From Eubacteriales bacterium (GTDB taxonomy: Bacteria > Bacillota > Clostridia > Oscillospirales > CAG-272), in the NCBI GenBank assembly GCA_045540515.1, contig JAZQHJ010000173.1, forward strand, positions 6,347-70,346: a stretch of 64,000 bases of DNA, written 5' to 3'. Under the pieces are notes generated by a model. It worked only from the letters and a program-made list of their open reading frames with translations, had not been told where the DNA came from and ran no database searches. A program made the translations under genes and the position numbers. The stretch's first letter is position 1; each line of letters begins with the position of its first letter. This document shows, in pieces, positions 37,298 through 59,602 of this stretch.

Positions 37298-38072
37298 TAC
37301 CGTCCTTTAATAAATTTGGAACAATGGGCCTTGATTGCCAATGAGAGCCAGATTCCATAACTGCTTGAATGAAGCCCTTGCGAACATATTTAAGTCGGTC
37401 AACGGTGAGTCCGTTTTCCTCAACCTTAATATATAGCCCCTCCATAAGCCTTGAAGGGTCCGTCTCACGCACCTGTCTTTCAACATCAAGGTCAAGCCTT
37501 TTGGCAAGTGCTCTTAAATTATCAATATGATTTTCAGTAATGTAATTTGAATTGCCAATGAGGGATAAAATTTCCTCCTTGCTAGAAAAAACACCACTTG
37601 CCAAAACGGGAACACTTGATATGATTCCCATTTTATCAGTTAGCATTTTTCTTGACGGAGTGTCTAAAAACACCCCATTTTCCCTGTCGTAAATATCAAA
37701 TTCCATAAAGTAGCTTGGCAAGGCATCGTAGAAAATAGTGTGCTTTGCATACATCCATTCGCCATACATTATATATTTAACCCCAAGAGTGTCAAAAAGA
37801 ATGTCCTGATTTGTGCTTGCCCATTGCTTTAATAGGTTATAGTGCCTTTCTCTGTATCCACCGTCAAGATAGTGTCCTCTGCTTTGCAAAAGTAAGTTGC
37901 CATTTTCATCAAAGGAGATTGCAGAGTTAGCACCGTCAATCTTTTCCTCTATAACAATATTTTTTCCAAGAATTTCGCTAAATGGCGCTTGTGAAAGGTC
38001 CTCATCACCAGGACCAAGACGTGAGCCCCTTAAATGCCTTGTTCTTGGATATTTTACTATATTAAAATCCAT
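37278..38072 (-). CDS. ATP-dependent RNA ligase family protein (PF09414-like)
   Basis: The nucleotidyltransferase motif I (KxDG) appears in EEKIDGAN, preceded by YPRTRHL. ATG at 38072 follows GGGAGAA; the track's TTG at 38084 is less likely. Confidence 0.7.
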   Translation of the reverse strand: MDFNIVKYPRTRHLRGSRLGPGDEDLSQAPFSEILGKNIVIEEKIDGANSAISFDENGNLLLQSRGHYLDGGYRERHYNLLKQWASTNQDILFDTLGVKYIMYGEWMYAKHTIFYDALPSYFMEFDIYDRENGVFLDTPSRKMLTDKMGIISSVPVLASGVFSSKEEILSLIGNSNYITENHIDNLRALAKRLDLDVERQVRETDPSRLMEGLYIKVEENGLTVDRLKYVRKGFIQAVMESGSHWQSRPIVPNLLKDGSAYGGY

Positions 38073-38087
38073 AATTTCTCCCAAAAA

Positions 38088-38780
38088 TTAGTTATCAATT
38101 TTTGCAATCATAAATAAATGTCCCGAAACGCCGTCAAAGGACAGCCTTGTTACGCCACAGGCATTAAAGTATTTTGTAAGCCTTTCCTTTGTGAGCAGGT
38201 GAATATGCTCGGGATTGTCATCCTCCTTGGAGGGAACGGTTACAACGATGAATTTTTTTGCAAGACTAACAGCGTTCTTAATAGCCCCCTCAACATCGGG
38301 AATATGCTCCAAGACCTCAAGCATAGTGACCACGTCAAAGCTTTTTTTAGGCAGGGACGTGTCGCAAATTGACTCGTTTACAACTGTTAGGTTGTTTGCT
38401 CCGCCGTTTGCGATATCATTAAGCAGAGTAACCCTTTTGTCAAGAATTTCAAGGCTTGTAACCCTAATATGGGGCATTTGCTCCATAAAGGGTAGAAGAA
38501 ACACCCCTCTGCCACTGCCAACATCTAACAGATTTTCAAAATAGATGCTTTTTAAAAAGCCAAGCACCTTAACAACCCTTGGTAGTGTTCTGTCACTTTT
38601 CTTAAAATAGTATAGCTTGATTTTGTGCTCGGAGGCAAAGTCAAAAAGAGCATTGCACTCGTCCTCGGTAAGGTCATCAAGGCTTTTTTCTAAAACTTGT
38701 GTATCAAATGGTAGCCCAAGCCTTTTAATCTGTCCTCTGATTACAGCAAGAGCATATTTGGAATAAAATCTTTCATTCAT
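38088..38780 (-). CDS. class I SAM-dependent methyltransferase
   Basis: Motif I LLDVGSGRGVF and post-I/II blocks (VTSLEILD, FDVVTMLEVLEHI). It is the first gene of the three-gene minus-strand operon. Confidence 0.75.
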   Translation of the reverse strand: MNERFYSKYALAVIRGQIKRLGLPFDTQVLEKSLDDLTEDECNALFDFASEHKIKLYYFKKSDRTLPRVVKVLGFLKSIYFENLLDVGSGRGVFLLPFMEQMPHIRVTSLEILDKRVTLLNDIANGGANNLTVVNESICDTSLPKKSFDVVTMLEVLEHIPDVEGAIKNAVSLAKKFIVVTVPSKEDDNPEHIHLLTKERLTKYFNACGVTRLSFDGVSGHLFMIAKIDN

Positions 38781-40072: not shown

Positions 40073-40100
40073 TTGAAATTACGACAAAACGTGCTATAAT
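40073..40100 (+). promoter_or_regulatory. candidate SigA promoter with extended -10 (TTGAAA-N13-TGCTATAAT) for the island
   Basis: TTGAAA at 40073-40078 and TGCTATAAT at 40092-40100, 42 nt upstream of the first island gene. Confidence 0.5.
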
Positions 40101-40141: not shown

Positions 40142-41008
40142 TTGGGCTGGAAGGACGACAGAAAAAAATATTTTGTTCTTAATGAGCAGGTATTGCAGTA
40201 TGCAAAAAAGGCTACCGCTGCTACAAGCACAAACGAGCTTGCAAAAATATGTCAAAGAATGTATATTGCGGATTATATAAACCTTGAAGGCATAGATTTG
40301 TATCTTGCAAAGCATGCGCTGACGGCAGTTTACAGAGTTTTGAAGCAATATCCTGCTTTAAGGGGCGAAATTCATTATTTTGGTACGTTAAGGGGCTTTG
40401 CTGAGAAGAAGGATGCACTTTATGAGTTTTTATATAAGGATGTACCGTTAGATTTAAAGCAAGGTGTAAAGAGAGAAAGTGACAAGCTGGTAAGTGATAT
40501 AAAATACACTCTTGACAATGCAGGTCTTGCCGTTGCCTTTTTAATACCGGCAGATAAATATAGGTTTTCAGGAATTATAATTGATGAAAACGATTTTGAC
40601 CACAAAAGCATTCTTTTGAATTTGGAGGAGGCGGTAAGACAGGGCTTTAATCCTGTTGGATGCTCAACCGTAAAGTCCGTCGTTGACCACGAGCTAGGAC
40701 ATTTACTCGATTATTGGTTAAACGTAAGTAATGATGCGGATTTCAAATCAAACTTTGATAAGGCAGGTCCATTTTACATAGAAAAGCACCTTTCGCAGTA
40801 CCCTGTATGCAGTGGAAGAACAAACTACGCAGAGGCACTTGCTGAGGGATTTGCAGAGGCACAAAACAATAGCAGCCCACGAAAAATTGCATGCTATGTA
40901 AAAAGAAAAATAGACGAAGCCTATGCTCAAAAAATAATTGAGCTAGACAACAAGGACAAGCATCAAAAAAGCTTTGCAGACAAAATCAAAAACTTACTTA
41001 AATTATAA
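40142..41008 (+). CDS. putative zincin-like metallopeptidase (HExxH)
   Basis: TTG start follows AAGGAGGG. HELGHLLD is followed about 50 aa later by EALAEGFAE, a candidate third ligand or helix. No signal peptide or TM segment is present. Confidence 0.45.
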   Translation: MGWKDDRKKYFVLNEQVLQYAKKATAATSTNELAKICQRMYIADYINLEGIDLYLAKHALTAVYRVLKQYPALRGEIHYFGTLRGFAEKKDALYEFLYKDVPLDLKQGVKRESDKLVSDIKYTLDNAGLAVAFLIPADKYRFSGIIIDENDFDHKSILLNLEEAVRQGFNPVGCSTVKSVVDHELGHLLDYWLNVSNDADFKSNFDKAGPFYIEKHLSQYPVCSGRTNYAEALAEGFAEAQNNSSPRKIACYVKRKIDEAYAQKIIELDNKDKHQKSFADKIKNLLKL

Positions 41009-41022: not shown

Positions 41023-42207
41023 ATGAAACAGGAATACACGTTAAGAGAGCTACTTGAGCTAGGAGCTGCTGAATCATATTATAGTGCAACTGTTGAAAGA
41101 TTCTCGCTAGCAAGATATTTCATGAATTTTATGAGAAATTATATTGATAGCAGAGAGGAAAACAAAACCAAGGCAAGTATAAATATGAATTTGGACACGC
41201 TTTGTGTAAAAATTGAAAGGAACGACCTTGGTGAAAATCAATACATCTTTTCTTTAAAAAACAAGCCAGTTGATGAGAATAACCCATTTGACAATTTTGC
41301 TTACGTAGGAAACAAGCTACTACAAGCAGTTGCTGAAAAGGGGCTTACATATTCAAAGCACGTTCCCTCAAAAAAGGATAAAATACAAGCAGTAGCAATC
41401 ATTTTATTTGAAATATTGTTCGCTTGCCATCCATACAAGGGAAATACATATTTTACAAGCGCTGTGGAAAGCCCAGAGAAGGAGCTAGAATTCTTTACAA
41501 ATAGCAAGCTTTTCATATTTGATGACGCAGTAGGAAAGAAAATTAGAATTAACGGCTACCACGATGTTCCATTTGCTCTTTGGGAAATGCTTTCCGAGGG
41601 ACAAAAGAGCTTCCTTAAAAAGGGCATTAGTGGAGCAGTTAAAAAGGAGGATTTTGCTTCCTTTTATGATGAATGGTATGTAAAATTCAAGTACAAGAGG
41701 ATAAATTATTTAACTCAATGCGGTCAAGAGATTTTCGGACTTGAATTTGAAAAGGATGATTTCGTTTTATTTGCAACTGATATTTTCTATGGAAAAAATG
41801 AGATAATTTGCTATTCCGCTGACCAAAGCAATTACAGAACCTGTGCAAAATGTACCTTTGCAGAGCAAAAGGTTAAGGCTGTTTCATATAAGGCAAGGGT
41901 AACACTTACTAACGCTGGCCTTGGAAGAAAAGCAACAGAGAGCACAGAAAAGGAAATTTCCATAAAGGTTGGTATGGAGATAACTGGACGAGACCTTGAT
42001 AAGAAAAATGGTGGGGACGAGGTTGTATTTACTGTAATTCCGAGCAAGAAAATAAATACAATAGGACTCCATTATACAGGTGACCAGGTTGTTACAGCCG
42101 TTTATCCAAACAAGGACGTTTATATGCATGAAAATGATGCGAAATTCGTAATTGCCCCTGGTACAGCTATTTATCTTGCAGGCAATTTGAAAATAGAAAT
42201 CTTATAA
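41023..42207 (+). CDS. pseudokinase-like protein (kinase C-lobe-like region without Gly-loop/Lys) with C-terminal beta-rich domain shared with the adjacent kinase
   Basis: KIQAVAIILFEILFACHPYKG aligns with DRYSLAIMLFMLLTNGHPLEG of the next gene. INMNLDTLCV occupies the catalytic-loop position. There is no GxGxxG or VAxK. The C-terminal segment resembles the kinase's C-terminal segment. Confidence 0.45.
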   Translation: MKQEYTLRELLELGAAESYYSATVERFSLARYFMNFMRNYIDSREENKTKASINMNLDTLCVKIERNDLGENQYIFSLKNKPVDENNPFDNFAYVGNKLLQAVAEKGLTYSKHVPSKKDKIQAVAIILFEILFACHPYKGNTYFTSAVESPEKELEFFTNSKLFIFDDAVGKKIRINGYHDVPFALWEMLSEGQKSFLKKGISGAVKKEDFASFYDEWYVKFKYKRINYLTQCGQEIFGLEFEKDDFVLFATDIFYGKNEIICYSADQSNYRTCAKCTFAEQKVKAVSYKARVTLTNAGLGRKATESTEKEISIKVGMEITGRDLDKKNGGDEVVFTVIPSKKINTIGLHYTGDQVVTAVYPNKDVYMHENDAKFVIAPGTAIYLAGNLKIEIL

Positions 42208-42226: not shown

Positions 42227-43648
42227 ATGCCAAAGAAAATAATAGTAACCTCAACGGTTAATCAAACATACGAGGTCGTTTTTGACCCAACAAATCCAAC
42301 AGGATATAAAACACTTGGAAGTGGAGGACAGGGAACTGTTTATGTTGCAAAAAGGCAAAGTGACGGAAAGCAATTTGCATTAAAGCTATTTCACAAAAAA
42401 ACCCCACCAAAATTTAACGAAAATATTAAAGAATTGGTTCAAACACCATGTCCACACCCAGCTTTTGTATGGCCACTAGAATTTATTGCCTCAGCCCCAA
42501 ATGGTGGAATTGGCTACATAATGGAAATTTACGATAGCGCCTTTCGCAAATTTGACGACTTTGTAGTTCACGGCACAGCCAAGGTGAAGTCAAGAAGGGT
42601 TCAGTTAAATGCATTAATTGAGCTATACAGTGCTTTTGCAAAGCTACACGCAATTGGTCGTTGCTTTCAGGATATAAATAACGGAGCAATCGTAATTGAC
42701 CCTGAAAAGGGAAGAGTTCGCATTTGCGATTGCGAAAACGTAATTCCAAACGGAGAAAAAATGCCTGTTATGTACGATGACAATGGAAGAGAACAGTATA
42801 TGAAGGGCGTTTCAAGATTTATTGCACCAGAAATAGAGCTAGGTGTAAAAAATCCAGATGTTTATACCGATAGATATTCACTTGCAATTATGTTATTTAT
42901 GCTTCTTACAAATGGACATCCACTCGAAGGATCAAAAAGATTTAAATACAACAAAGAGCAAATTGTAACAGCTGACGTTGAGCATGATATATTTGGAAGA
43001 AATCCAATATTTATATTTAGCTCAGCCAATAAAACAAACCCACCAGATCCAGAAGCTGACAGAGGTCCAATAGCAGCGTGGCCAATGATTCCTGAAACAG
43101 TTAAGGTGTTGTTTGAAAAGACCTTTTCTGCCGGCGCTCCTATAAACGGCTCAACAAGCAATTTGAATAACAGAGAGCAAAGGCCAACAGAAGACCAGTG
43201 GAAAAAGGAGCTTGAGAAATGGGCAGATATGCTAGTTCCTTGCTCTGGCTGTAAAAAATCCTTTGTTGCAAAAATCAATGCAAAGGAGAAAAGGGCGGAT
43301 ACTGTTTGCCCAATATGCAAGAAGGATAACAAGTATAATTTCCCACTTATGGGAGTTTTCAATGGGGGAATTCAAACAAGAATAGTATTGCTTTCACCAA
43401 ATAAGAAGGTGCCATCAGAAACTATTTTTGCTGATAGCTCCCTTGAACCAGTTATGCATATTATTCCATCTAAAAAGGAGCCAGGAACCTATGGAGCTGT
43501 AAATCTATCAAATAATGAATGGATGTGCACAGTAGGCCAACAAGGTACAAGGGTTTCTCCTGGCAAGGTAATAAAGCTAATAGATGGTATGACAATCGAA
43601 ATAGATTATGAAACAAAATGTAAGATTTTAGTCCCTAAAAAGGGTTAA
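42227..43648 (+). CDS. Ser/Thr protein kinase (atypical catalytic loop) with Zn-ribbon and C-terminal beta-rich domain
   Basis: Gly-loop LGSGGQGTVY, Lys in FALKLF, catalytic Asp in CFQDINNGAIVID, DFG-equivalent ICDCEN, APE in FIAPEI, and a CxxC...CxxC ribbon (CSGCKKSF...CPICKKDN). Confidence 0.8.
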   Translation: MPKKIIVTSTVNQTYEVVFDPTNPTGYKTLGSGGQGTVYVAKRQSDGKQFALKLFHKKTPPKFNENIKELVQTPCPHPAFVWPLEFIASAPNGGIGYIMEIYDSAFRKFDDFVVHGTAKVKSRRVQLNALIELYSAFAKLHAIGRCFQDINNGAIVIDPEKGRVRICDCENVIPNGEKMPVMYDDNGREQYMKGVSRFIAPEIELGVKNPDVYTDRYSLAIMLFMLLTNGHPLEGSKRFKYNKEQIVTADVEHDIFGRNPIFIFSSANKTNPPDPEADRGPIAAWPMIPETVKVLFEKTFSAGAPINGSTSNLNNREQRPTEDQWKKELEKWADMLVPCSGCKKSFVAKINAKEKRADTVCPICKKDNKYNFPLMGVFNGGIQTRIVLLSPNKKVPSETIFADSSLEPVMHIIPSKKEPGTYGAVNLSNNEWMCTVGQQGTRVSPGKVIKLIDGMTIEIDYETKCKILVPKKG

Positions 43649-43688: not shown

Positions 43689-44468
43689 ATGGATGAAAAC
43701 ATGGAATTATTCGGAGAAGAGGGCTTTGACGACATTGGCGAAATTCCAGTAGGAGCGCAAAAGGAAATTCTTGTAGTGCCAATTATCGACGCATCAGGAA
43801 GTATGAGTGACTATGGCAACATTACAAAGGTTAATGAGGCAATGGCAACTGTACCAGCACAGCTCAAGCAAATTGAACAAAAAGAGCATGTTAAGGTTGT
43901 ACTAGCACCACTTGCGTTCAGCAACGAGGCAAAATGGCTCGGCTTACAAGGTGGCTCACCTGTTTACGTGGATCAATTCGTATGGAGAGACCTTTCTGCA
44001 TCTGGCGGAACAAACCTTGGAGATGCTTACACAAAGCTATGGGAAAAGCTCACAACAAAGGAGCAAGGCGGTTGGATGGACGGCAGAAAGGGCTTAAAGC
44101 CAATTCTACTTCTCATTTCTGACGGAGCTCCAAATCCAGGCTGGGAAAGACCTTTTGAAAAATTAAAGGAAAGAGGCTGGTTCAGCACATCAATCAGATA
44201 TGCAATCAAGGTTGAAAGTGCAAGAGAGGACGTTCTTTTGGCATTTACAGAAAACAAAGAGGCTATCTATGATATTTCAACCCTAAGAGACAAGCTTTCT
44301 TCTTTAATTGTAAAAATTATTATGAAGGTAACCGAGGCTGTAAGTAAGGGTGGCGGAGTTAAGGCAAACATCGGTGGTTCAAATCAAAGCATGGACCAAC
44401 AAGCAAACAAAGAGATAATTGCTGGCGCTAACGAAGAAATTAAGGCAGACGACCCAACCCTATTCTAA
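43689..44468 (+). CDS. TerY-like von Willebrand factor A domain protein (intact MIDAS)
   Basis: MIDAS DxSxS in PIIDASGSMS, Thr in SGGTNLG and Asp in LLLISDGAPN. Confidence 0.8.
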   Translation: MDENMELFGEEGFDDIGEIPVGAQKEILVVPIIDASGSMSDYGNITKVNEAMATVPAQLKQIEQKEHVKVVLAPLAFSNEAKWLGLQGGSPVYVDQFVWRDLSASGGTNLGDAYTKLWEKLTTKEQGGWMDGRKGLKPILLLISDGAPNPGWERPFEKLKERGWFSTSIRYAIKVESAREDVLLAFTENKEAIYDISTLRDKLSSLIVKIIMKVTEAVSKGGGVKANIGGSNQSMDQQANKEIIAGANEEIKADDPTLF

Positions 44469-44490
44469 TTAAAATAACGCAAATCAGACC

Positions 44491-44516
44491 TGTCCGCCGT
44501 CGTAGGACGGTGGACA
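44491..44516 (+). other. strong intra-operon RNA hairpin (11-bp stem, GTAG loop), no T-run
   Basis: TGTCCGCCGTC gtag GACGGTGGACA (one G-U pair), located 23 nt after the vWA stop codon. Confidence 0.5.
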
Positions 44517-44635
44517 AGCTCTGGTTACAAAAAACAAATGACCTTAAAAGTCCAAGCACGGCTTGGCAAAAAAGAAATAAATTTGAAAACAGCTTGGCAT
44601 ATGCCAATAACATAAAATTAGGAAAAGGAGCTAAA

Positions 44636-45358
44636 ATGGCAAAATTACAAGAATCCTCAAAACAAAAACAAATGGAACTGCTAGTAGTTCCAATTATAAA
44701 TGTATCAAAGAGTATGAAGGGCGAAAAAATTTCTTCAGTCAATGAGGCTATGAGCAACTTTGCTTCCCAGCTTCTTGCGATTGAAGAAAACGAGATAAAT
44801 GTGTTGATTGCTCCACTTGTTTTTTCAAGCAAGGCACAATGGATAAAATTAAATGATAATAACCCAGTAAGACCAGCAGATTTTATCTGGGAGGACATAA
44901 GCGCAGATGATGAAGAGGCAAATCTTGGTAGCGCTTACGAATTACTATATGAAAAGCTTCAAACAAAGGAAAACGGCGGTTGGATGCAATATAAAGATAA
45001 GGGGCTATGTCCAATTATTTTGCTTATTTCTGATAATTCTGTTAGCCATAGTGCAAATTGGCAGAAGTCATATGAACACATAAGCGGGCTTTTTTGGTTT
45101 CAATGGGCATTAAGGTTTGTAATAAAGATTGAATCAAATGACGCTCTTGAAAGCTTTGTTAAATGTAGAGAAAATATTTACGATGTTCATCATTTAAGGC
45201 ATGATGTTGGATGCTTTGTTCATCCAATTGTGTGTAGCTATGATAGGTATTGCGACGACGAACCACATTATGAAAATGAGCCCGTTACTCCTCAAAGCAA
45301 CGAGGATGACACAAAGCCAATAGAGCCAATAGATTTCGAAGACCTTTTTCTAGAATAA
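44636..45358 (+). CDS. vWA domain protein with degenerate MIDAS
   Basis: ATG at 44636 follows AAAGGAG. The MIDAS positions read NVSKS (D to N), DDEEANLG (T to A) and LLISDNS (DG to DN). The C-terminus is acidic. Confidence 0.65.
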   Translation: MAKLQESSKQKQMELLVVPIINVSKSMKGEKISSVNEAMSNFASQLLAIEENEINVLIAPLVFSSKAQWIKLNDNNPVRPADFIWEDISADDEEANLGSAYELLYEKLQTKENGGWMQYKDKGLCPIILLISDNSVSHSANWQKSYEHISGLFWFQWALRFVIKIESNDALESFVKCRENIYDVHHLRHDVGCFVHPIVCSYDRYCDDEPHYENEPVTPQSNEDDTKPIEPIDFEDLFLE

Positions 45359-45403
45359 TTTTTAGTAGCATTAAATTAAATACATATACAGCAAGGAGAC
45401 AAA

Positions 45404-46108
45404 ATGGCAAAAAAATACCCATTTGATGAGCTAGAAGAAGGAGTTCCAATTCCACAGTGCTTCGTAGCTCCAATTATTGACACATCTGGAAGCATGTATA
45501 ACATTTTACCTCTAATAAACGAAGCTATAAGTGAGCTTTTACCAATATTAAAGGAAATAGAATTAGACGAGTGCATTGATATAAGCTTTATGCCAATAGG
45601 CTTTGCAAATCAAGCAAGGTGGTTAAGAGCACCAAATGATGATGGCTGTGAATGGGATAAGGAAAAGCTAGTAGCAAGCGGAGGAAGCAATTTAGAGAGT
45701 GCATTTAATTTGCTTTACGATAAGCTAAAAAGTGAAAAAGAAGGCGGATGGTTAAGGAGAGAAGCAACACGACCGGTTCTTGTTCTTATAACAGACGGAT
45801 ATCCAGAGCAAGGCTGGGAGAGGGCGTTAGAGGAGCTAAACAAGGTAAATGCCTTCAAGAACGCTATAAGATATGCAATTGAGCTAAACGATGTAGATGA
45901 AAGGGTTCTTTTAAAATTTGCAGACGAGGATGCAGTTATTCGTGTTTGGAAGAACACAGATATTAAGGAGCTTTTTATGGAATTGATTGTTTTGGCAATA
46001 CAAGAAGCAAGGTGTACTGATAGCCTTTTATTGAATGACGGCATATCCAAGGAAAAAATCATTAGAAGAATAAATGAAGCAATCTTCTATAAAGAGGAAG
46101 AGCTTTAA
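45404..46108 (+). CDS. TerY-like vWA domain protein (intact MIDAS)
   Basis: PIIDTSGSMYN, SGGSNLESAF and VLITDGYPEQGWE. Confidence 0.8.
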   Translation: MAKKYPFDELEEGVPIPQCFVAPIIDTSGSMYNILPLINEAISELLPILKEIELDECIDISFMPIGFANQARWLRAPNDDGCEWDKEKLVASGGSNLESAFNLLYDKLKSEKEGGWLRREATRPVLVLITDGYPEQGWERALEELNKVNAFKNAIRYAIELNDVDERVLLKFADEDAVIRVWKNTDIKELFMELIVLAIQEARCTDSLLLNDGISKEKIIRRINEAIFYKEEEL

Positions 46109-46140
46109 ACAGAAAGAAAATATATAAGGAGAAAATAAAT

Positions 46141-47244
46141 ATGGAAAAGGGATTTTTTATATCAAGAAGAGGTGGCTCTCACGCAAGCTCAGGAACACCA
46201 ATGCAGGATTATTCATCAGCGGTAAGATGCGATGATTATAGCATTGCAATAGTTTGTGATGGACACGGATCAGCCAAGCATTTCAGAAGTCATATCGGCT
46301 CACGTCTTGCAACCGAGGTAATACAGGAAAATCTAATAGATTTTGTAAATGCGTATCCAAATTATGAAAGCGCGAGTAAGGATTTTGGCAAAAAGGCTGA
46401 AAGATTAAAGCTAAATATTTTAAATACATGGATTTCCAAAATTGATGAGGATATAGACAAAACTCCTTTTACCGAGGAAGAGCTTAAAAAGGGTGTAGGC
46501 AACAAGGGTGTTGATTATTTAAGCTACTATACCAAGGTTACACCATATGGAACAACTGCTCTTGCGGTGCTTTTGACCAAGGATTATTATGTAGCGCTTA
46601 TGCTAGGTGATGGACTTATTGCAAAAATGGCTCCTTATACTGAAGCGACCGAGGAAACCTTTGAGGGAAAGCGTGAAATTAAAAGAGGCGACCCGATTGA
46701 CTCTATGTGCAACGAGGATGCGGCATATAAAATGCACGTAAAGTGCGTTCCTGTATCAGAGGACGAAAAGGGACTTGCATTTGCAATTTCCTCTGACGGA
46801 TATTGTGAAGCAGGCGTTTTTCCAACCTGGAAAATGCTAAATTGGCCAAAGAAATACATAGTAAGATATGCAGTTAGAGGTATTGACGAGGCAATAGAAG
46901 CAATTACACCTCAATTTGACGAGATTTCAGCAAAAAGCGAAGCAGAGGACGACATTTCAATGGCGATTGCTTGCAATGAACCAGAGTTATATATAGAATG
47001 GGCAAAGGCGGAGAGAGAAAAGGCTCTTAAAGCAAAGGCAGAGGCAGAGAGAAAAGCCGAGGAAGAGAAAAAGGCAGAGGCTGAAAAGGAAGCAACGGCG
47101 AAAGCAGAGACAGAAGCAAAGGAAGAAGAAAAGGCTCAAAGCACAGAGCAAGAAAGCGCCCAAGCACCTGATGAAAAGCCAGAGCAGGAAAATAAAGAAA
47201 CCGAGCAGACCCCTGAAAAGGAAGAGGATGCTCCAAAGGAATAA
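46141..47244 (+). CDS. PP2C-family Ser/Thr phosphatase with E/K/A-rich low-complexity tail
   Basis: MQDY...AIVCDGHGSAKH, LMLGDGLI and AISSDGYCE blocks. The last ~90 aa are KAEAERKAEEEKKAEAEKE... Confidence 0.75.
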   Translation: MEKGFFISRRGGSHASSGTPMQDYSSAVRCDDYSIAIVCDGHGSAKHFRSHIGSRLATEVIQENLIDFVNAYPNYESASKDFGKKAERLKLNILNTWISKIDEDIDKTPFTEEELKKGVGNKGVDYLSYYTKVTPYGTTALAVLLTKDYYVALMLGDGLIAKMAPYTEATEETFEGKREIKRGDPIDSMCNEDAAYKMHVKCVPVSEDEKGLAFAISSDGYCEAGVFPTWKMLNWPKKYIVRYAVRGIDEAIEAITPQFDEISAKSEAEDDISMAIACNEPELYIEWAKAEREKALKAKAEAERKAEEEKKAEAEKEATAKAETEAKEEEKAQSTEQESAQAPDEKPEQENKETEQTPEKEEDAPKE

Positions 47245-47279
47245 TAATGGAGAAATAAGCCAAGAGCTTAATTAGAAAT

Positions 47280-47801
47280 ATGGAGCATTTATTCATTTTA
47301 GTTGACACCTCGGGAAGCGTTGTGCTTGAAGGGATTCAAAAGATTGGACAAATTAACGATTTTTTAAGAGATGTGATAATTGCAACAATAGACCATCTTA
47401 AATCAATTCATGTTATTTTGTATTCTGATTTGCCAAGGGTTTATTTTAGAAAATCCGACGGAAGGGGATTCGGAGAAATCAAGGACTATGAATTTACAGG
47501 ACGCTCTAATCTTGGAAAGGCATATGCATTAACTAAAAAAATAATGGATGAGCAATCAGTTGATTGCTCAAATTCCATTATTGCCATAATATCGGACGGA
47601 GAGGCAACCGATAATTACAAAAAGGAGCTTATGCTCCTTGACCCAGACCAGAAATCAAAGAGGATTGCAGTGGGCTTGGGTGCAGAGCAAGATACACTTG
47701 AAGACCATATAAACGAAACAGGTGTAATTATATCCGATATAACAAGCGATAATGCAAAACGAGAGTTTATAGGCAACACAATCAATACAATTACTATATA
47801 A
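47280..47801 (+). CDS. short vWA domain protein (intact MIDAS)
   Basis: FILVDTSGSV, GRSNLGKAY and AIISDGEATDN. The protein is 173 aa. Confidence 0.7.
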   Translation: MEHLFILVDTSGSVVLEGIQKIGQINDFLRDVIIATIDHLKSIHVILYSDLPRVYFRKSDGRGFGEIKDYEFTGRSNLGKAYALTKKIMDEQSVDCSNSIIAIISDGEATDNYKKELMLLDPDQKSKRIAVGLGAEQDTLEDHINETGVIISDITSDNAKREFIGNTINTITI

Positions 47802-47813: not shown

Positions 47814-50800
47814 ATGAACATATCAGCAAAAGATCTGGCAAAATTTTTACAGAATTCCGTTTCCTTTGATTTTTCAAAGGAAACAATTTTGTCGTACAAT
47901 AAAATACGCAGAAGATATGATGATTTTTATGCCTTGGAGAATAAAAGAGCATTTATTGCCTTGCTTAATGATATAATCGGTGATGACAATCAGTTGGTTG
48001 ATATTTTTGCTGACCTTCAAGCAGCCGATAGAGGATTCAGATTTTTTGCAAACGAGGAAAATAGGCAGTCAAGAAGCGTATTAAACGCAATCGGCTATTT
48101 TTTAAGCGACAGACGATTTGATTATCACAAAAACGATATTGCAAAGGTATATTTTGCAATAAACACATGGCTCTGCTTCTACGGTGCAAATGAGGTTTCA
48201 CTTCACTGGACCGTTTGTCCTCTATGCACAAAAAAGATTGTATTTGGACAATGCAGTAATTTAAGCTGTAAGAAGAAGGAAGAGGAATTTATTCCTATAA
48301 TGCTTGAGCTTCAAGCAATTTTAAAGGCAGAAAACGAAGGCAAGGAAATGCCTTTGCCAAAATATTTTAAAACGATTGAGCCAAATGCCGAGTTTGGCTT
48401 TTACAAAACAAGCATTGAGCAAAAAAGGAACGAAAGAAAGGCGCAACAGGAGCAACAGGAGCAGAAGGACAAAAAGAAAGCAATTGAGCTTGCAGAAAAG
48501 GAGCTTGTAAAGATTTCTGAAAAGGCAAGGCTCGAATCCGAAAAGGAAGTTCCTGATTTTGATTCAATTTTTAAGGAGCTTACAACAAATCCTATAATCC
48601 TTGAAGCACTAAAATACAAGGACAAGAGCTTTGAGAAAAAGCTCAATGCCTTAAAGGAGCAAATTCAAGGCTATAAGGACAGCGTTTATTCAAAAAAGGA
48701 GCAAGAAAGACAAAAGGCAATAGCTATAAATGACTTTAAAGCTTTTTCTCTCCTAAAAGCAAAGCTGGATGCAGAGCTTGCAAACAAGGGAATTGAGCTC
48801 CCTCTTGAAGAGGTTAGAGAGCTTTTGGCAAAGGCAGATGAGGCATTTAATAAGGTTGACACTGCAAATACAAGATACCCAAGCCTGTATTCAAAGTCCG
48901 AGAAGGAAGTCATTAAGGACTACAAGGAAAGCACCAAGCCAAAAACCGAAAAGAGAATCGAGGAAAGAGTCGAGGAGGAACGCCTTGACGACGCCAAGGA
49001 CAAGCTTGTAATAGCTATTGGTGAAATTGAAAAGGAATACGAAAGATGCAAGAATCTCAAGGACGGCGCAAGTGAGCTTTGGGAAAAATTTATAAACGAG
49101 ATTGAGAAAAACGAGGAATATATTGACTGTCGTGAGGTTCCAGCGTGGGATGCTGTTTATTTGGAAATAACAGGACCAATAAAGCAGAAGCTTTCAAATT
49201 TGCTTACAGAGGAAACCGAACAAAAGAAAAAGCACTTTATGTCAGCAGTTGTTCCTTTAAAGGATAAGGTAAGCAAGGCAAAGCCAGCGGACAAGTCTGC
49301 AAATGCTTTATCTAACGAGCTTAAAGCAATAAAAGCTAACAAATACTATTCGAGCATAAAGCAAAGTGCTGAATACAAGAAGGAAATTGCTTGGCTTGAA
49401 AACAAAATAAACGACCTACAAGCAAAGGAAAGGGCATATTTCAAGAGAAGAAAGACAGCCGTTTCAGCAACATCTATAACTATTTTGAGCCTTGCTATAA
49501 TTTTGTACTCACTGCTTGCGTACATTATTCCAATTTCAAGGGTTCAAATCAAATCAACAAAAGCCTCGACTAATAATTATTCAGTTGAAAGCTTAAAGGA
49601 CAACGAAACTGAATTTTTGATAATAGACGAGTATTTACCACATTTCTTTTTACAAAAAAGTAAAAGGGTTTCAAGCATTTCAAGCGAAGCCTTTAAGAAT
49701 AATGAATATCTTAAAAAATGCACACTTCCTGCTTCAATTGAAAGAATAGGAGAGGGAGCATTTGATGGATGCACAAGCCTTGGTCTAGTAGTGCTACAAT
49801 CCAATGAGCCACCAAAAATTGAGAGTAGCTCGTTTGATAATTGTAACACAATTTTTGTCGTGCCAGAGGAAAGCTACTCTGCGTATATGCAAAGCGAGGA
49901 CTGGGCAAGACACAGAACAAAAATTTTCCCAAATTACAACAACCAAGACGGCTTTGGCACTGTTATGTTCGATTCAAATGGTGGAAGCAGTGTTGAAACA
50001 ATGAAAACAATTCAGCTAAATGCACAGGTAAGCACACTTCCAACCCCAACCAAGGAGGGCTACGCCTTTGCAGGCTGGTATTACATTGATGCAGAGGGCA
50101 AGCAAGCCGTAATGAGCAATGATGATGCAGTGTTTTCAACAAGCACAAAGCTTGTTGCCAAGTGGAAGCAGGGCGTATATTCAGTAAGCTTTGAGCAAAA
50201 CGATGGCACAGGAAAAGCAACAAGCGCTGACTATACATATGGTGAAAGATGGGAGTCATTCCCACAGCCTACAAGGGATGGATATACCTTTGAGGGCTGG
50301 TATATAAATGACAAGAAGCTATTAGAGACATCACTTGTTAGCATTACAGGAAATGCAACTGCAATAGCAAAATGGACTGCAAACGAATACAGTGTTAGCT
50401 TTGATTATGCAGGCGGAGAGTCTTCAACAGAGCAGACAACGGTAATTTTTGATGGAAAATACGGAGAGCTTCCACAATCAACAAAAGTGGGCTATACCTT
50501 TGGTGGTTGGAGCTATGAAAATGAAAGCATTAGTTCAAGCACAGTAGTTAAAGCACCAAAAAATCATACGCTTGTTGCAAAATGGATTCCAAACACCTAC
50601 ACAATCCGTTATGAGGCTATGGGTGGAATAATAAGCGAAGAGACTATAATCTGCGAGTACGATAAGCCAGTGACACTCAGCGCTCCGCAAAGAGCTGGTT
50701 ATACCTTTGTTAACTGGGAGTGCGACGGAGTAACCTATCTTGCAGGAGACGAGGTTCTCAATCTTGCAAGCACAAGTGCTGAGTTTGTTTTTGAGGCTAA

Positions 50801-53800
50801 TTGGAAAGCAAACACCTATAAAATTAAATACGATTCAGACGGAGGAAATGTAAACAAGCAGGAGCAGGATTGCATATATGATGTAGATGTCGTGCTTGAA
50901 ACACCGACAAGAAATGGCTATAAGTTCCTTTACTGGTCATATGGCTCTTACAAGCTGTATGGTGGAGAGGTTGCAAGCAATCTTTCATCCACACAAGGGG
51001 ATGAAATACAGTTAAAGGCAATATGGAGAGCAATTACATATACAATTGAATATGATGCAAATGGTGGAGAGCAGGTAAACAATAGCGTTCTATGTACATA
51101 TGATGTTCCTACAATACTAGAAACTCCAACAAGAGATGGCTACACCTTCAAGCATTGGACACACCAAGGGACAATTTATGAGGCTGGACAAAGCATTGTA
51201 AATCTTACAAGCGACGATGAAGGAAAAATCAAGCTTGTTGCCGTTTGGGTCGCTAAGGAAAATGTTATCACCTTTAATCCAAATGGTGGTACAGGAGAAA
51301 TGACCGACGTTAATATACTTTCCGATGGTAGTGTACAATTACCACTTAATGCATATGCAAAAAATGGCTATACCTTTATAGGTTGGAGCACACAGAAAAA
51401 TGGTAGCGTTGAATATAAAGACGGAGATACCTTTGAGGCAGGAACAGAGTCAAGCTATACTCTTTATGCCGTTTGGGAGGCAAATGAAAACAAGCTAATT
51501 CTTTATGCAAATAACGGTACACAGGAGAGCATTGAGCTAACTGTTAAAACAGCACAGACAATAACAATACCTAAAAACACCTTCACACGTGCAGGATATA
51601 CCTTTACAGGCTGGGAGCTGGCAGATGGAACAGGTGCATCCTACAAGGATGAGGCAGAGATAGTAATGCCTGCAAGTGAGGAATCATACCTTGTTGCAAT
51701 ATGGACGGCAAATGATAACACCATTATTTTTGATGCCAATGGAGGAAGTGGAGAAGCAGTTGAACAGCATATCAAGACTGATGAAAATAAGCCACTTATT
51801 GCTTGTAGCTATACAAGAAAGGGTTATAAATTTATAGGCTGGTCAAGGACTAAGGACGGAGGAGTAAACTATTTAGATGGCGCAGGCTATCAAATGGATG
51901 CAAGCGCAACAACAACTCTTTATGCGGTTTGGGAAATCGTAAATTACGATATTACCTATGAGCTAAGCGGAGCAGAAAATTCAAGCTCAAATCCAACAAG
52001 CTATAACATAAGCTCAGGCACAATTGTACTTGAAGCTCCAAGCAAGGCTGGTTATACCTTTGATGGATGGTTCCTTGATGAATTAGCAACTCAACCAATT
52101 ACTCAAATTGATTCAACAAGGCTTGAAGCAATTACTCTTTATGCTAAATTCACAGTAAATACAAATAAGCTTCACTTTAATCCTATGGGAGCAAGTGGAG
52201 AAATGGCAACTCTTGATGTTCAAACGGGCAAGATAGTTACCTTGCCAAGCTGTACATTTACAAAGCCGGGTTACTATTTTGTAGGTTGGAGCACAGAAAA
52301 TGGCGGAGACGTGTCGTATTTTGCTTCCTCATCGTACGAAATGGGAACAGAGGCTGAATATACTCTTTATGCCGTTTGGGATAAGGCTGTATATACCATA
52401 AGCTATGAAACAAACGGTGGAACAAATTCAACCTTAAATCCATCCGAGTACCACATAGAAAGTGCAGAAATTATTTTGAAATCACCTACAAAGGCAGGCT
52501 ATACCTTTGGAGGCTGGTATTCAGAATCAACAATGACAACTGATAAGGTGGAAAAAATATCAGCAGGAAGCACGGGCAATATAACCCTATATGCAAGGTG
52601 GATTGCAAATACAAATACACTCCACTTTAACGCAAACGGCGGAACGGGAGCAATGAATGACGTTAAGCTTCAAACTGGCGAGGAAATGAAAGCATTGCCA
52701 AGCGCTACCTTTGAAAAGGTCGGCTACAACTTTGCAGGTTGGGCACTAACACCTAATGGAAGCTCAATTTATGCAAACGGAGCAAGCTTTGAAATGGGCA
52801 CCGATGCTGAAATGACACTCTATGCAGTATGGACAGACTTTTCATATACTATCTCATATAATTTGGACGGAGGAATAAACAATCAACAAAACCCAAGTGG
52901 CTATGGTGTGGAAACCAACACAATAACACTTGCATCTCCAACCAAGGCAGGCTACACCTTTATGGGATGGTATTCTGAGGATTCCCTTGAAAACAAGATA
53001 ACACAAATTCCAAAGGGAAGCACAGGAAATATTGTGCTTTATGCAAGCTGGGAAGCAAACGAAAATACAATAATATTCAATCCAAATGGCGCAACTGGCT
53101 CAATGAGTAGCATTAAGCTGAAAACAGGCGAGTCGATAAAGCTACCAAGAAATACCTTTAAGAAGGAGGGCCATACCTTTAAGGGCTGGGCAACCACTGC
53201 AAATGGAGCAGTTGCTTATGCTGATGGCTCTGCTTATGTAATGGGTACTGGCTCAACCTATACGCTATATGCAGTATGGCAGGCGAATTCATATGTTGTA
53301 ACATATGCAGACCATTCAAAGACAGTTATCTATGGTCAGTCATACGGAACGCTTTCAAAGCCAAGCACAGAGCCAACAGGATATAAGTTCTCACATTGGA
53401 CATACAATGGAGCAACAATAAGTGCTGGAACAACTGTAACAACTGCGTCAAGCCATACCCTAACACCAGTATGGGTAGCACGTACATATACAGTTTATTA
53501 CGGACCATATTCAAAGACAGTAACATACGATCAGCCATATGGAGAATTTAACACAGTATCAAAGACAGGATATACATTCAATAATTGGAGCTATAATGGA
53601 GCAACAATAACCTCAAATACAATTGTTAAAACGGCATCAGACCATACCTTAAAGGACAACTGGGTAGTAAACTATTACACGATTTCAATTTCTGAAAGCG
53701 GAGCATGGGCAACAGTTGAGGTTAATGGAGTTACATATTCCTCTGAAACTACAATTTCAGCTCCATACAATGCAAGCATAAAGGTTACATTTGGTGCAAA

Positions 53801-54608
53801 TAGCAATTATCAAAATCCTACATGCTCGTACAATGGAACTGCAATATCAAGTGGCTATACAACAACTATGCCAGCAGGCAACGTAAGCATAAGTGCAAGC
53901 GCAACAGAAATTCCATCAGGTGGTAGTTGCTTTGCAAGAGGAACACTGATTGCACTAGGAAATGGCAGAGTGGTTAAGGTCGAGGACCTAAATGTTGGAG
54001 ATGAAATCTTATCATTTGACCACGCAACAGGAAAATTTGTAGCTCAAAGGGTTGGATTTATCTTTAAGGCATTTGAAAGTGTTGAAATAAACGAGCTATT
54101 CTTTGAAAATGGTAGCTCAATTACCTTAACTAACTATGGCGGACACGGTATGTATGATGCTACTCTTGGAGAATATGTACTAATAACACCAGAAAACGTA
54201 AATCAATTTATCGGGCACGAGTTTGCAGTAATGAATGGTGAAAAAATAGGTACAACAAGGCTTGAAGCATATGATTACAGAATTGCATATGTTGAGCGAT
54301 ATGACGTTGTAACCCACAACACCCTTAACTGCATAGCGAATGGATTTATTACATGCTCTGACGTGCTTGTAAGCATTTGCAATGTATTTGAATTTACAAG
54401 CAATTTTACGTATGACCTTGAAAAAATGGAAAACGATATTAACACCTACGGCTTATACACCTATGAGGAGTGGAGTGAATATCTAACCGAGGAGGAATTT
54501 AATTCCTTTGGAGGTGCATACTTCAAGGTAGCTGTTGGCAAGGGCTTAATTACAAGGGATGAAATATTACAGCTCCTTTGGTTCTTGCACAGCTGGAACA
54601 ACATTTAA
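47814..54608 (+). CDS. 2264-aa single-pass membrane protein: cytoplasmic Zn-ribbon + coiled coil, TM helix, BspA-type LRR, 17 Listeria/Bacteroides (Flg_new-type) repeats, beta-rich spacer, C-terminal Hint domain
   Basis: CPLCTKK...CSNLSC ribbon (48215-48269). K/E-rich coiled coil at about aa 170-540. TM helix AVSATSITILSLAIILYSLLAYIIPI (49458-49535). LRR IERIGEGAFDGCTSL. GY(T/K)FxGW occurs 17 times. CFARGTLIALGNG...THNTLNCIANGFITCS is the Hint domain. Confidence 0.8.
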   Translation: MNISAKDLAKFLQNSVSFDFSKETILSYNKIRRRYDDFYALENKRAFIALLNDIIGDDNQLVDIFADLQAADRGFRFFANEENRQSRSVLNAIGYFLSDRRFDYHKNDIAKVYFAINTWLCFYGANEVSLHWTVCPLCTKKIVFGQCSNLSCKKKEEEFIPIMLELQAILKAENEGKEMPLPKYFKTIEPNAEFGFYKTSIEQKRNERKAQQEQQEQKDKKKAIELAEKELVKISEKARLESEKEVPDFDSIFKELTTNPIILEALKYKDKSFEKKLNALKEQIQGYKDSVYSKKEQERQKAIAINDFKAFSLLKAKLDAELANKGIELPLEEVRELLAKADEAFNKVDTANTRYPSLYSKSEKEVIKDYKESTKPKTEKRIEERVEEERLDDAKDKLVIAIGEIEKEYERCKNLKDGASELWEKFINEIEKNEEYIDCREVPAWDAVYLEITGPIKQKLSNLLTEETEQKKKHFMSAVVPLKDKVSKAKPADKSANALSNELKAIKANKYYSSIKQSAEYKKEIAWLENKINDLQAKERAYFKRRKTAVSATSITILSLAIILYSLLAYIIPISRVQIKSTKASTNNYSVESLKDNETEFLIIDEYLPHFFLQKSKRVSSISSEAFKNNEYLKKCTLPASIERIGEGAFDGCTSLGLVVLQSNEPPKIESSSFDNCNTIFVVPEESYSAYMQSEDWARHRTKIFPNYNNQDGFGTVMFDSNGGSSVETMKTIQLNAQVSTLPTPTKEGYAFAGWYYIDAEGKQAVMSNDDAVFSTSTKLVAKWKQGVYSVSFEQNDGTGKATSADYTYGERWESFPQPTRDGYTFEGWYINDKKLLETSLVSITGNATAIAKWTANEYSVSFDYAGGESSTEQTTVIFDGKYGELPQSTKVGYTFGGWSYENESISSSTVVKAPKNHTLVAKWIPNTYTIRYEAMGGIISEETIICEYDKPVTLSAPQRAGYTFVNWECDGVTYLAGDEVLNLASTSAEFVFEANWKANTYKIKYDSDGGNVNKQEQDCIYDVDVVLETPTRNGYKFLYWSYGSYKLYGGEVASNLSSTQGDEIQLKAIWRAITYTIEYDANGGEQVNNSVLCTYDVPTILETPTRDGYTFKHWTHQGTIYEAGQSIVNLTSDDEGKIKLVAVWVAKENVITFNPNGGTGEMTDVNILSDGSVQLPLNAYAKNGYTFIGWSTQKNGSVEYKDGDTFEAGTESSYTLYAVWEANENKLILYANNGTQESIELTVKTAQTITIPKNTFTRAGYTFTGWELADGTGASYKDEAEIVMPASEESYLVAIWTANDNTIIFDANGGSGEAVEQHIKTDENKPLIACSYTRKGYKFIGWSRTKDGGVNYLDGAGYQMDASATTTLYAVWEIVNYDITYELSGAENSSSNPTSYNISSGTIVLEAPSKAGYTFDGWFLDELATQPITQIDSTRLEAITLYAKFTVNTNKLHFNPMGASGEMATLDVQTGKIVTLPSCTFTKPGYYFVGWSTENGGDVSYFASSSYEMGTEAEYTLYAVWDKAVYTISYETNGGTNSTLNPSEYHIESAEIILKSPTKAGYTFGGWYSESTMTTDKVEKISAGSTGNITLYARWIANTNTLHFNANGGTGAMNDVKLQTGEEMKALPSATFEKVGYNFAGWALTPNGSSIYANGASFEMGTDAEMTLYAVWTDFSYTISYNLDGGINNQQNPSGYGVETNTITLASPTKAGYTFMGWYSEDSLENKITQIPKGSTGNIVLYASWEANENTIIFNPNGATGSMSSIKLKTGESIKLPRNTFKKEGHTFKGWATTANGAVAYADGSAYVMGTGSTYTLYAVWQANSYVVTYADHSKTVIYGQSYGTLSKPSTEPTGYKFSHWTYNGATISAGTTVTTASSHTLTPVWVARTYTVYYGPYSKTVTYDQPYGEFNTVSKTGYTFNNWSYNGATITSNTIVKTASDHTLKDNWVVNYYTISISESGAWATVEVNGVTYSSETTISAPYNASIKVTFGANSNYQNPTCSYNGTAISSGYTTTMPAGNVSISASATEIPSGGSCFARGTLIALGNGRVVKVEDLNVGDEILSFDHATGKFVAQRVGFIFKAFESVEINELFFENGSSITLTNYGGHGMYDATLGEYVLITPENVNQFIGHEFAVMNGEKIGTTRLEAYDYRIAYVERYDVVTHNTLNCIANGFITCSDVLVSICNVFEFTSNFTYDLEKMENDINTYGLYTYEEWSEYLTEEEFNSFGGAYFKVAVGKGLITRDEILQLLWFLHSWNNI
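49956..53666 (+). repeat. in-frame tandem protein-repeat array (17 units of ~63-75 aa, four subtypes)
   Basis: The repeats fall into four subtypes, which I label A-D. Reading along the gene, the order is D x6 (aa 715-1146), A x3 (1150-1375), alternating B-A x3 (1376-1822) and C x2 (1826-1951). Each unit carries a GY(T/K/N/Y)F.(G/N/H/Y)W core. Confidence 0.8.
53928..54356 (+). other. Hint (Hedgehog/intein-like, BIL-type) domain
   Basis: It starts at Cys2039 (CFARGTLI, the intein block A pattern) and contains VVTHNTLNCIANGF (block F-like). It ends ITCS instead of the canonical terminal HN. An 83-aa tail follows. Confidence 0.7.
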
Positions 54609-58171: not shown

Positions 58172-58182
58172 GGAGGCTAATT

Positions 58183-58440: not shown

Positions 58441-58453
58441 TTAAGGACTAAAA

Positions 58454-58741: not shown

Positions 58742-58759
58742 TAATAAGAGGTGAATCTT

Positions 58760-59320: not shown

Positions 59321-59328
59321 GGTGAAAA

Positions 59329-59601: not shown

Positions 59602-59602
59602 T

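Follow-up and report, generated by a model that had tools for sequence, protein, structure and literature searches.

A TerY-P-type operon with tandem vWA genes and a partly degenerate MIDAS paralog in a gut Clostridia contig

A 64,000-nucleotide stretch of the Eubacteriales bacterium contig JAZQHJ010000173.1 (GenBank assembly GCA_045540515.1, contig positions 6,347 to 70,346; hereafter the window, whose numbering is used throughout) encodes a Ser/Thr kinase, a PP2C-family phosphatase, and four proteins with von Willebrand factor A (vWA) domains in a single row of genes. The best overall explanation, with a probability of roughly 0.55, is that this row is a TerY-P-type operon with an amplified vWA gene, where the second vWA protein (vWA2) would be a selected accessory paralog serving as a metal-insensitive modulator of the kinase/PP2C switch. 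By its predicted domain content, the locus is a gut-Clostridia version of the TerY-P-type triad of vWA, kinase, and PP2C, accompanied by a WXG/FtsK module. The genes concerned are listed below, together with the residues at the five ligand positions of the metal ion-dependent adhesion site (MIDAS) of each vWA domain.

42227-43648, plus strand: Ser/Thr kinase of 473 amino acids (aa); its C-terminal part has a zinc ribbon with four Cys and, after it, a beta-rich domain of some 100 aa (Pkinase, E-value 7.7e-14)
43689-44468, plus strand: vWA1, TerY/YegL-type; canonical MIDAS residues D34, S36, S38, T108, and D145; C-terminal tail ..ADDPTLF
44636-45358, plus strand: vWA2, TerY-like, 240 aa; degenerate MIDAS residues N22, S24, S26, A95, and D133; C-terminal tail ..DFEDLFLE
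45404-46108, plus strand: vWA3, TerY-like, 234 aa; MIDAS residues D26, S28, S30, S95, and D131 (Ser for Thr)
46141-47244, plus strand: PP2C-family phosphatase of 367 aa with a low-complexity KAEAE/EEK tail (PP2C_2, E-value 3.7e-24)
47280-47801, plus strand: vWA4, short, 173 aa; MIDAS residues D9, S11, S13, S76, and D106 (Ser for Thr)

The triad and its four vWA genes

A preliminary description of this DNA, made from the sequence without database searches, had read the locus as a TerY/kinase/PP2C module with extra vWA genes. This reading was correct, as the VWA, Pkinase, and PP2C_2 domains were all identified in one row, and the coordinates and motif strings it had quoted for the four vWA genes around the PP2C gene were exact. 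In the kinase, K53, D149, and D168 were invariant among 42 homologs, and C339, C342, C361, and C364 were invariant or nearly so. The AlphaFold2 model of the protein, with a pLDDT score (predicted local distance difference test) of 94.2, included the kinase domain, the zinc ribbon, and 10 strands at residues 374-468. For the beta-rich C-terminal domain, a profile search of the PDB returned no matches, and a Foldseek search with the whole model was swamped by kinase domains. An FHA or OB fold had been suspected for this domain from its sequence, a claim that was dropped when no PDB profile matched; a Pfam FHA match was likewise absent from the proteins scanned. The translation of the PP2C gene includes CDGHGS and SSDG motifs, and the gene lies on the same strand as the vWA genes on either side, with gaps of 32-35 nt.

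A profile built from vWA1, vWA2, vWA3, and P0002, a vWA paralog in the related locus L001, identified 2534 representative proteins, whose source names included "tellurium resistance protein TerY" and "YegL". The closest plasmid matches included a VWA-AAA-CARF-PP2C-kinase operon on plasmids of Klebsiella and related plasmids, an order known as one extended CoCoNuT arrangement (Bell et al., 2024, PMC11090510). A kinase with a zinc ribbon plus a domain rich in beta strands, linked to a PP2C and a stand-alone vWA, has been described previously (Kaur et al., 2020, PMC7159879), as has a TerY-P kinase with a zinc ribbon (Bell et al., PMC11090510), and the architecture of the kinase in the window fits both descriptions. 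PADLOC returned no vWA or PP2C match among the window proteins, and likewise none for a canonical Bacteroides relative of TerY-P. Since the program was silent even on this canonical relative, its silence was uninformative and was not counted against membership.

The MIDAS columns were set by MAFFT alignments of the paralogs, by the family hidden Markov model (HMM), and by comparison with the solved structure of the ITIH4 vWA domain, where a profile alignment put DKSGS, GGT, and TDG at the expected positions. The intact DxSxS...T...D pattern was found in vWA1 and not in vWA2, and vWA3 and vWA4 carry a Ser for the Thr. In vWA2, two of the five ligands are changed (Asp to Asn at the first position, and Thr to Ala), and both Ser residues and the final Asp are kept. 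An acidic insertion of four residues, DDEE, stands directly before A95. The preliminary description had claimed that every MIDAS position of vWA2 was substituted, which is wrong; its account of the individual losses was borne out for the first Asp and the Thr, and the change next to the Gly is real (Gly to Asn after the final Asp, SDG to SDN) but concerns no metal ligand. Alignment to the ITIH4 profile and the family HMM placed no intact MIDAS elsewhere in the protein. The site is hence best called partly degenerate, and vWA2 is putatively, as had been suggested, metal-independent. Its start codon, an ATG at 44636, is backed by a AGGAAAAGGAG ribosome-binding site and by an identical 240-aa protein at NCBI.

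The four vWA proteins are not equally related. The Pfam VWA scores of vWA1 to vWA4 were 33.0, 20.9, 34.0, and 26.4 bits, where that of vWA2 fell under the cut-off of 23.8; vWA4 also scored 31.1 bits against VWA_2. The preliminary description had called all four paralogs; the first three are close TerY-like paralogs that share about 32-45% identity. The shorter vWA4 is a distant vWA protein, with 23% identity in the MAFFT alignment and an hhalign probability of 91.6% (E-value 8e-7) against the TerY-like profile.

The C-terminus of TerY-like proteins is usually an acidic stretch with an aromatic residue after it, as in ..DDTDDLF, ..DFEDLFLE, or ..DDWD. Among single-domain representatives, 52 of 81 canonical ones and 16 of 28 degenerate ones have such a tail. 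It is kept by every degenerate copy of the loci studied and is encoded in the window at 44439-44468 (vWA1) and 45329-45358 (vWA2), but it is absent from vWA3 and vWA4. Peptide binding at a MIDAS typically runs through an acidic side chain of the peptide, and this conserved tail may serve for docking or be bound by a MIDAS as its ligand. The peptides bound by MIDAS sites are typically extended or unstructured (PMC7159879).

Copy number and exchange among related loci

About 12 informative related loci (given L-numbers) were collected from gut-Clostridia metagenomes and metagenome-assembled genomes. When copies were counted as TerY-like vWA genes 5' of the PP2C gene, thus leaving out vWA4, a single copy was found in L005, L006, L010, L014, and L016, two in L004 and L019, three in the window, and four in L001 and L002. 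The locus L014 shares the chromosomal neighborhood of the window (GH31, GH92, phosphoglucomutase, and the HD/AAA_33, RNA ligase, and methyltransferase genes) at 70-74% DNA identity, and its operon, at the matching site, is the same except for having a single vWA gene before the PP2C gene. These counts show that the TerY-like vWA gene was amplified in tandem in this lineage. The preliminary description had noted that four vWA genes exceed the single TerY of the module; the extra copies are real, but multiple copies in TerY-P have already been described (PMC11090510).

The MIDAS residues differed between single-copy and multi-copy loci. The canonical DSSTD set is encoded by all nine single-copy loci examined, two of which are more distant and come from Bacteroides and Oscillospiraceae. 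Each multi-copy locus encodes at least one DSSTD copy together with degenerate ones, for example NSSAD and DSSAN in L001, ESAAN in L004, and DAYSD in L019. In a neighbor-joining tree, the degenerate lineages were separate and long-branched; the MIDAS was therefore lost repeatedly, after duplication. A similar picture was obtained for the wider family. Among the best 150 representatives, 91 of about 170 domains were canonical and the rest (about 45%) deviated from DxSxS..T..D, so that a degenerate MIDAS is common rather than exceptional; several representatives are vWA-vWA fusions of one degenerate and one intact domain. A degenerate copy beside an intact one is therefore a recurrent trait of the family and not a peculiarity of the window. 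As for the degenerate copy of the window itself, its conservation is partial: it is kept in L001 and L002, and it is missing from most related loci, including L014.

A few further observations concern the settings in which these genes occur. One degenerate family member, P0081 (ESNAN; L022 8001-8702), has no kinase or PP2C gene in its locus and adjoins a small FliG_C-like gene. In L010 (4436-6151) and L016 (5970-7685), a gene for a TraG/VirD4-type coupling protein lies directly 5' of the operon, which hints that the module travels on conjugative elements. Pattern-based scans for the locus were weak, an alignment of 39 sequences being too diverse to yield a pattern: three loci came from genome contigs and three short ones from metagenome contigs, and the scan of viral contigs came out empty, giving no sign of a phage-borne module.

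Comparison of the window with L001 revealed an uneven divergence along the operon. The neighboring operon genes are 34-55% identical, with synonymous divergence (dS) of 0.9-2.0 (saturated), including vWA3, which is 55% identical to its 248-aa ortholog; vWA2 is 96% identical, with a dS of 0.064. Two segments were delimited by sliding identity and blastn:

44709-45537, plus strand: near-identical tract of about 830 bp, mostly at least 95% identical to L001 11000-11834
44529-44754, plus strand: junction, comprising the region upstream of vWA2 and its first 40 or so codons, homologous to the 5' end of the P0002 gene in L001

The tract covers the vWA2 domain, the following spacer, and the first 130 or so nt of vWA3, and the rest of the locus is about 60-65% identical to L001. 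This pattern indicates a recent recombinational exchange of one vWA gene, as judged from the aligned DNA. An assembly chimera was considered as the source of the 96% tract and ruled out because the same arrangement is found in L001, L002, and L003, which are three independent assemblies. In blastn searches, window 44529-44754 matched L001 9894-10119 at 87% identity, and window 44665-46367 matched L001 10956-12691. The 5' end of vWA2 thus matches a different paralog, P0002, and the copy in the window is therefore a recombinant or fusion gene. Relative to L001, it appears that either a paralog was lost from the window by crossing-over between tandem copies, or one was gained in L001. The L001 ortholog begins with a 55-aa N-terminal extension (encoded at 10798-10960) of about five acidic F-G repeats (EDIFGE, DDTFGE, and similar) that resemble the tail motif; this extension is missing from vWA2 of the window, whose N-terminus derives from the other paralog.

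A second pair of loci behaved similarly. The degenerate copies at L004 9159-9845 and L019 479-1171 are only 35% identical, compared with 95% for the intact copies and 81-86% for the flanking DNA, and the DNA similarity between the two loci stops at the start of the degenerate gene and returns at its tail-coding end (..IMDETDDLF). In both comparisons, the degenerate slot has a history separate from that of the remaining operon genes, and the degenerate copy behaves like a cassette exchanged between lineages.

Selection on vWA2 and rival explanations

In the preferred reading, vWA2 would have lost the canonical high-affinity hold on metal and ligand along with the Thr and the first Asp. It would dock to one or more shared partners through its conserved tail and core and act as a metal-insensitive alternative to, or competitor of, vWA1 in the kinase/PP2C switch, and in this way it would modulate or diversify the input of the phospho-switch. 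The switch would most likely control the adjoining EssC-like/WXG100 and surface-protein modules, in a conflict or defense role.

Alternatively, vWA2 could be a redundant tandem duplicate under relaxed constraint and heading for loss, with the MIDAS changes as the first visible damage and the copy number set by unequal crossing-over without function. Such a history would fit the range of one to four copies among close relatives, the lack of the copy in L014 at the same site, the origin of the window gene as a chimera of two paralogs, the long branches of the degenerate copies, and the free drift of their MIDAS residues (ESAAN, ESAAS, DCGSG, and DAYSD). However, the reading frame was unbroken in every degenerate copy examined. 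The orthologs of vWA2 in L001 and L002 (285 aa) are 96% identical to it over 227 residues and have the same N/S/S/A/D residues, and the L001 ortholog falls in the same 90% cluster. Between the two genes, eight synonymous and nine non-synonymous differences were found, giving a ratio of non-synonymous to synonymous rates (dN/dS) of 0.26; in view of the share of non-synonymous sites, these are fewer non-synonymous changes than expected under neutrality (binomial p = 0.008). Other pairs of degenerate paralogs had ratios of about 0.3, and the degenerate copies together range from 0.26 to 0.34, much as intact orthologs do.

Additionally, the degenerate copies retain the family core and the C-terminal tail. 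Their lineages are spread over several clusters at 50% identity, and degenerate domains are also found joined to intact ones in a single polypeptide, which indicates long-term retention. The AlphaFold2 model of vWA2 (pLDDT 69, predicted template modeling score 0.70) matched complement C2a, CMG2/ANTXR2, ITIH1, the integrin alpha-M I domain, and VWF A2 in Foldseek, each with a probability of 1.00, so the protein is predicted to retain the Rossmann-like alpha/beta fold of vWA domains. A concentration of its divergence at the MIDAS face was looked for and not found: conserved columns were kept at 11 of 18 positions near the site and 37 of 57 elsewhere. With retention similar near and away from the site, the divergence is therefore general and does not reflect a collapse of one face. 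In sum, vWA2 is by all these signatures an intact gene under purifying selection, rather than the decaying pseudogene that the preliminary description had allowed for, and its being a duplicate on the way to loss is considered unlikely.

The degenerate copies may also be exchangeable specificity or regulatory cassettes, each with a variable body and a conserved tail, that are swapped by recombination at the conserved flanks. The tail could then possibly serve as the acidic ligand of a neighboring intact MIDAS. The proteins of the window would form a donor/acceptor set (site and tail in vWA1, tail only in vWA2, and site only in vWA3 and vWA4) that builds or caps head-to-tail vWA assemblies, and these assemblies would gate the kinase/PP2C switch together with the EssC-like/WXG100 and surface-protein modules. 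This proposal is speculative and is offered with little confidence.

Alternatively, vWA2 may still bind metal through N22, S24, S26, and D133, perhaps aided by the DDEE loop, and be a TerY sensor of altered affinity or selectivity. Three of the five ligands are kept, with Asn isosteric to Asp; an insertion of four acidic residues comes right before A95; and NxSxS recurs in the family (NSSSD three times, NSSRD, and NSSPD). Against this, the MIDAS Thr of integrin I domains contacts the metal directly in the high-affinity state. Moreover, other degenerate paralogs in the vWA2 slot have lost different and more ligands (ESAAN, DAYSD), and the slot as such therefore needs no metal site. Retained metal sensing in vWA2 is accordingly held to be quite improbable.

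The preliminary description had suggested that vWA2 may be a regulatory or scaffolding subunit, or else a decoy substrate of the kinase. As a decoy it would mainly accept phosphate, in competition with vWA1 for the kinase and PP2C, and would buffer the switch; this is the most doubtful of the explanations. In its favor, vWA2 shares an operon with an apparently active kinase and PP2C and shares tail and core with vWA1, and TerY proteins are hypothesized to act in a phosphorylation-dependent switch with a kinase and a phosphatase (PMC11090510). Against it, vWA2 has no known or conserved phosphosite, its tail (..DFEDLFLE) lacks the Thr that in relatives often comes before the tail (..TDDLF), and the sequence offers no way to tell a decoy from an adaptor.

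Several points weigh against vWA2 as a selected, metal-insensitive modulator. The selection test on vWA2 comprised 17 substitutions in all. The degenerate copy is missing from most related loci and is therefore dispensable for the core system, and unequal crossing-over could just as well have produced the recombinant 5' end of the window gene as a by-product. The putative loss of metal binding follows from two substitutions; three ligands are left, and a water molecule can still be held in place by Asn. The expectation that degenerate copies always accompany a kinase and a PP2C is false, as P0081 in L022 demonstrates, and TerY-like vWA proteins with a degenerate site thus also occur outside TerY-P operons. 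Finally, the defense role rests on the literature, because the PADLOC models miss even canonical relatives.

Neighboring modules and comparison with known systems

The triad is embedded in an unbroken row of plus-strand genes from 40142 to about 59971, with intergenic gaps of 12-167 nt. The order is p288 (with an HExxH motif), p394, the Ser/Thr kinase, vWA1, vWA2, vWA3, PP2C, vWA4, a giant protein, an FtsK-family ATPase, three WXG100-like genes, and three small genes. The remaining features of this row are as follows:

40073-40100, plus strand: best-scoring promoter-like site, TTGAAA-16-TATAAT with TG, 5' of the first gene of the row
40142-41008, plus strand: p288, zincin-like protein of 288 aa with HELGH...AEGFAE, kept in position in relatives
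41023-42207, plus strand: p394, kinase-derived, pseudokinase-like protein of 394 aa (BLASTP against the adjoining kinase, E-value 3e-6)
47814-54608, plus strand: giant protein of 2264 aa with LRR_5, at least 16 Listeria-Bacteroides (Flg_new) repeats, and a weak Hint match (residues 2036-2107)
54668-57871, plus strand: EssC/EccC-like FtsK-family ATPase of 1067 aa (FtsK_SpoIIIE, E-value 2.8e-15, one match)
57884-58741, plus strand: three small helical WXG100-like proteins of 95, 85, and 95 aa, adjoining the ATPase
58751-59971, plus strand: three trailing genes kept in L001, for p189, for a second protein (90 aa) with a C-terminal transmembrane (TM) helix, and for a third (122 aa) with three such helices

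The site at 40073-40100 is likely the start of the operon, as predicted from its promoter-like elements, and the terminator scan found no convincing plus-strand terminator between the genes of the row. The first gene product, p288, had no match in the Pfam scan. It shares 30% identity with the C-terminal domain of a coiled-coil protein of 478 aa whose gene lies 3' of the WXG genes in L001 (17833-19269), and the latter protein has a weak match to anthrax lethal factor (ATLF). The domain may be that of an effector-type metallopeptidase. The second, p394, aligns to the C-lobe of the kinase alone (kinase residues 218-303) and therefore looks like a pseudokinase paralog; it has no Pkinase match in Pfam, and the C-terminal ends of the two proteins are weakly alike. 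In L004 and L006, its slot is occupied by longer kinase-like proteins, of 1108 aa and 704 aa, respectively.

Downstream of the triad, the giant protein begins with a cytoplasmic coiled coil of about 548 aa with CxxC pairs, followed by a single TM helix at residues 549-575. The gene for a giant Flg_new-repeat protein lies 3' of vWA4 in eight loci (the window, L004, L005, L006, L010, L014, L016, and L019), which suggests that the two are a functional pair; the pair is absent from L001. The N-terminal part of the ATPase is a coiled coil; the protein has neither a TM helix nor a Pfam FHA match, carries a single Walker A (residue 501) and Walker B (residue 618) in its central domain, and matched EccC5 and YukB among PDB sequences. 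The middle WXG100-like protein (58183-58440) scored 28.2 bits, above the WXG100 cut-off of 27.3, and the other two scored under it. At the end of the row, window 59292-59937 matched L001 20056-20700 in blastn. WXG100 proteins next to an EssC/EccC-related FtsK/SpoIIIE ATPase, as in type VIIb systems, are thus present, but the membrane-anchored EssC of such systems, with FHA and TM segments, was not found, and no EssB- or EsaA-type genes were recognized in the row by the Pfam scans.

The flanking open reading frames and ten large upstream ones were also scanned with Pfam, yielding glycoside hydrolases, an RNA-repair trio, PFL, an ABC-F protein, and similar families. The trio adjoins the operon on the minus strand (36119-38780) and is composed of an HD and AAA_33 protein, an RNA ligase, and an S-adenosylmethionine-dependent methyltransferase in a row, resembling an RNA-repair cassette of the Pnkp/Hen1 type. 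Its HD/AAA_33 and RNA ligase genes are retained in L001 and L014, and its methyltransferase gene in L014. Farther upstream, three plus-strand genes at 8440-16307 encode proteins of 1140 aa (no Pfam match), 693 aa (an AAA and AAA_lid_6 ATPase), and 774 aa (no Pfam match). This cluster could be another conflict or defense system.

The closest known system is TerY-P itself, a triad attributed to Anantharaman, Iyer, and Aravind (2012) as summarized in PMC11090510 and PMC4978471. Its association with WxG/FtsK genes was traced to the same 2012 work as cited in these two papers, so that it appears in descriptions from 2012, 2016, and 2024. Activity against T7-like phages was reported by Gao et al. 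(2020), as cited in PMC7699616, for a variant with, by that account, an OB fold instead of the zinc ribbon at the C-terminus of the kinase. The window resembles TerY-P in its operon of TerY/YegL-like vWA, PP2C, and zinc-ribbon Ser/Thr kinase genes, in its minimal module of WXG100 and FtsK-like genes, in the mosaic character of the region between relatives, and in the coupling-protein gene that adjoins the operon in two of the related loci. Unlike TerY-P with its one vWA, the window has three tandem TerY-like copies and the distant vWA4, and it adds a pseudokinase paralog and the conserved pair of vWA4 and the giant Flg_new/LRR/Hint protein. No separate TerY_C protein was found in the window. 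Linked nuclease, helicase, McrBC, HEPN, or CARF genes were not found either in the Pfam scans of the flanking and ten large upstream reading frames, with small reading frames scanned in part.

A duplicated TerY-like VWA gene, of which the internal copy "lacks the middle threonine", has been described in the extended Type III-A CoCoNuT (Bell et al., 2024, PMC11090510, section 10). The same authors described, beside TerY-P, an EssC-like ATPase with a long N-terminal coiled coil, without TM segment or FHA and with the central P-loop alone intact, together with WXG100 (PMC11090510). The window shares the duplicated VWA with a Thr-less copy, this type of EssC-like ATPase, and the WXG100 genes. In contrast, CnuB/McrB, CnuC/McrC, the CnuH helicase, HEPN, and CARF were not found in the window, where moreover the ATPase gene lies 3' of PP2C and vWA4 instead of between two VWA genes, vWA2 also lacks the first Asp, and the copies reach three to four.

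The same three protein families are also clustered in E. coli as YegI, PphC (YegK), and YegL, according to the abstracts of two preprints (bioRxiv 10.1101/303594 and 10.1101/819920). Unlike the window, that cluster contains just one vWA gene and lacks an EssC/WXG or surface-protein module; going by those abstracts, the role of YegL is uncharacterized. Some homologs of vWA1 are named YegL by JGI. Outside such clusters, the A1, A2, and A3 domains of VWF are vWA domains that naturally have no MIDAS. Similarly, vWA domains missing the MIDAS aspartates are known from MoxR-vWA ternary conflict systems, where an alternative mode of peptide recognition was suggested (Kaur et al., 2020, PMC7159879). 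Like vWA2, these domains keep the fold and have lost the metal ligands, and VWF A2 was among the matches to the vWA2 model. Their partners, however, are MoxR AAA+ ATPases or matrix ligands, without a kinase or PP2C, and they do not stand in tandem with a canonical copy. A functional parallel may be found in the type VI secretion system of Pseudomonas aeruginosa, which is controlled through Thr phosphorylation by PpkA (a kinase with a vWA domain), PppA (a PP2C), and Fha1. Here too a kinase, a PP2C, and a vWA domain accompany a secretion ATPase machine, and this likeness suggests a post-translational gating of an export or assembly step. The differences are the other type of secretion system, a periplasmic vWA domain that is fused to the kinase, and the use of a canonical FHA adaptor, no Pfam FHA match being present in the proteins scanned here.

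That duplicates of TerY-like vWA genes tend to lose MIDAS residues was already known; the window is a further example and leaves the basic picture unchanged. Three features go beyond the descriptions consulted: tandem copies numbering three to four, the pseudokinase together with the pair of vWA4 and the giant protein, and the way the degenerate copy is exchanged like a cassette. TerY-P modules are widespread and have been reported to act against phages. A lineage with one to four copies, where vWA2 has lost the metal site and vWA3 and vWA4 have lost the tail, offers a natural dissection of this component, and the cassette-like exchange of its degenerate copy would be evidence of conflict-type selection acting on it.

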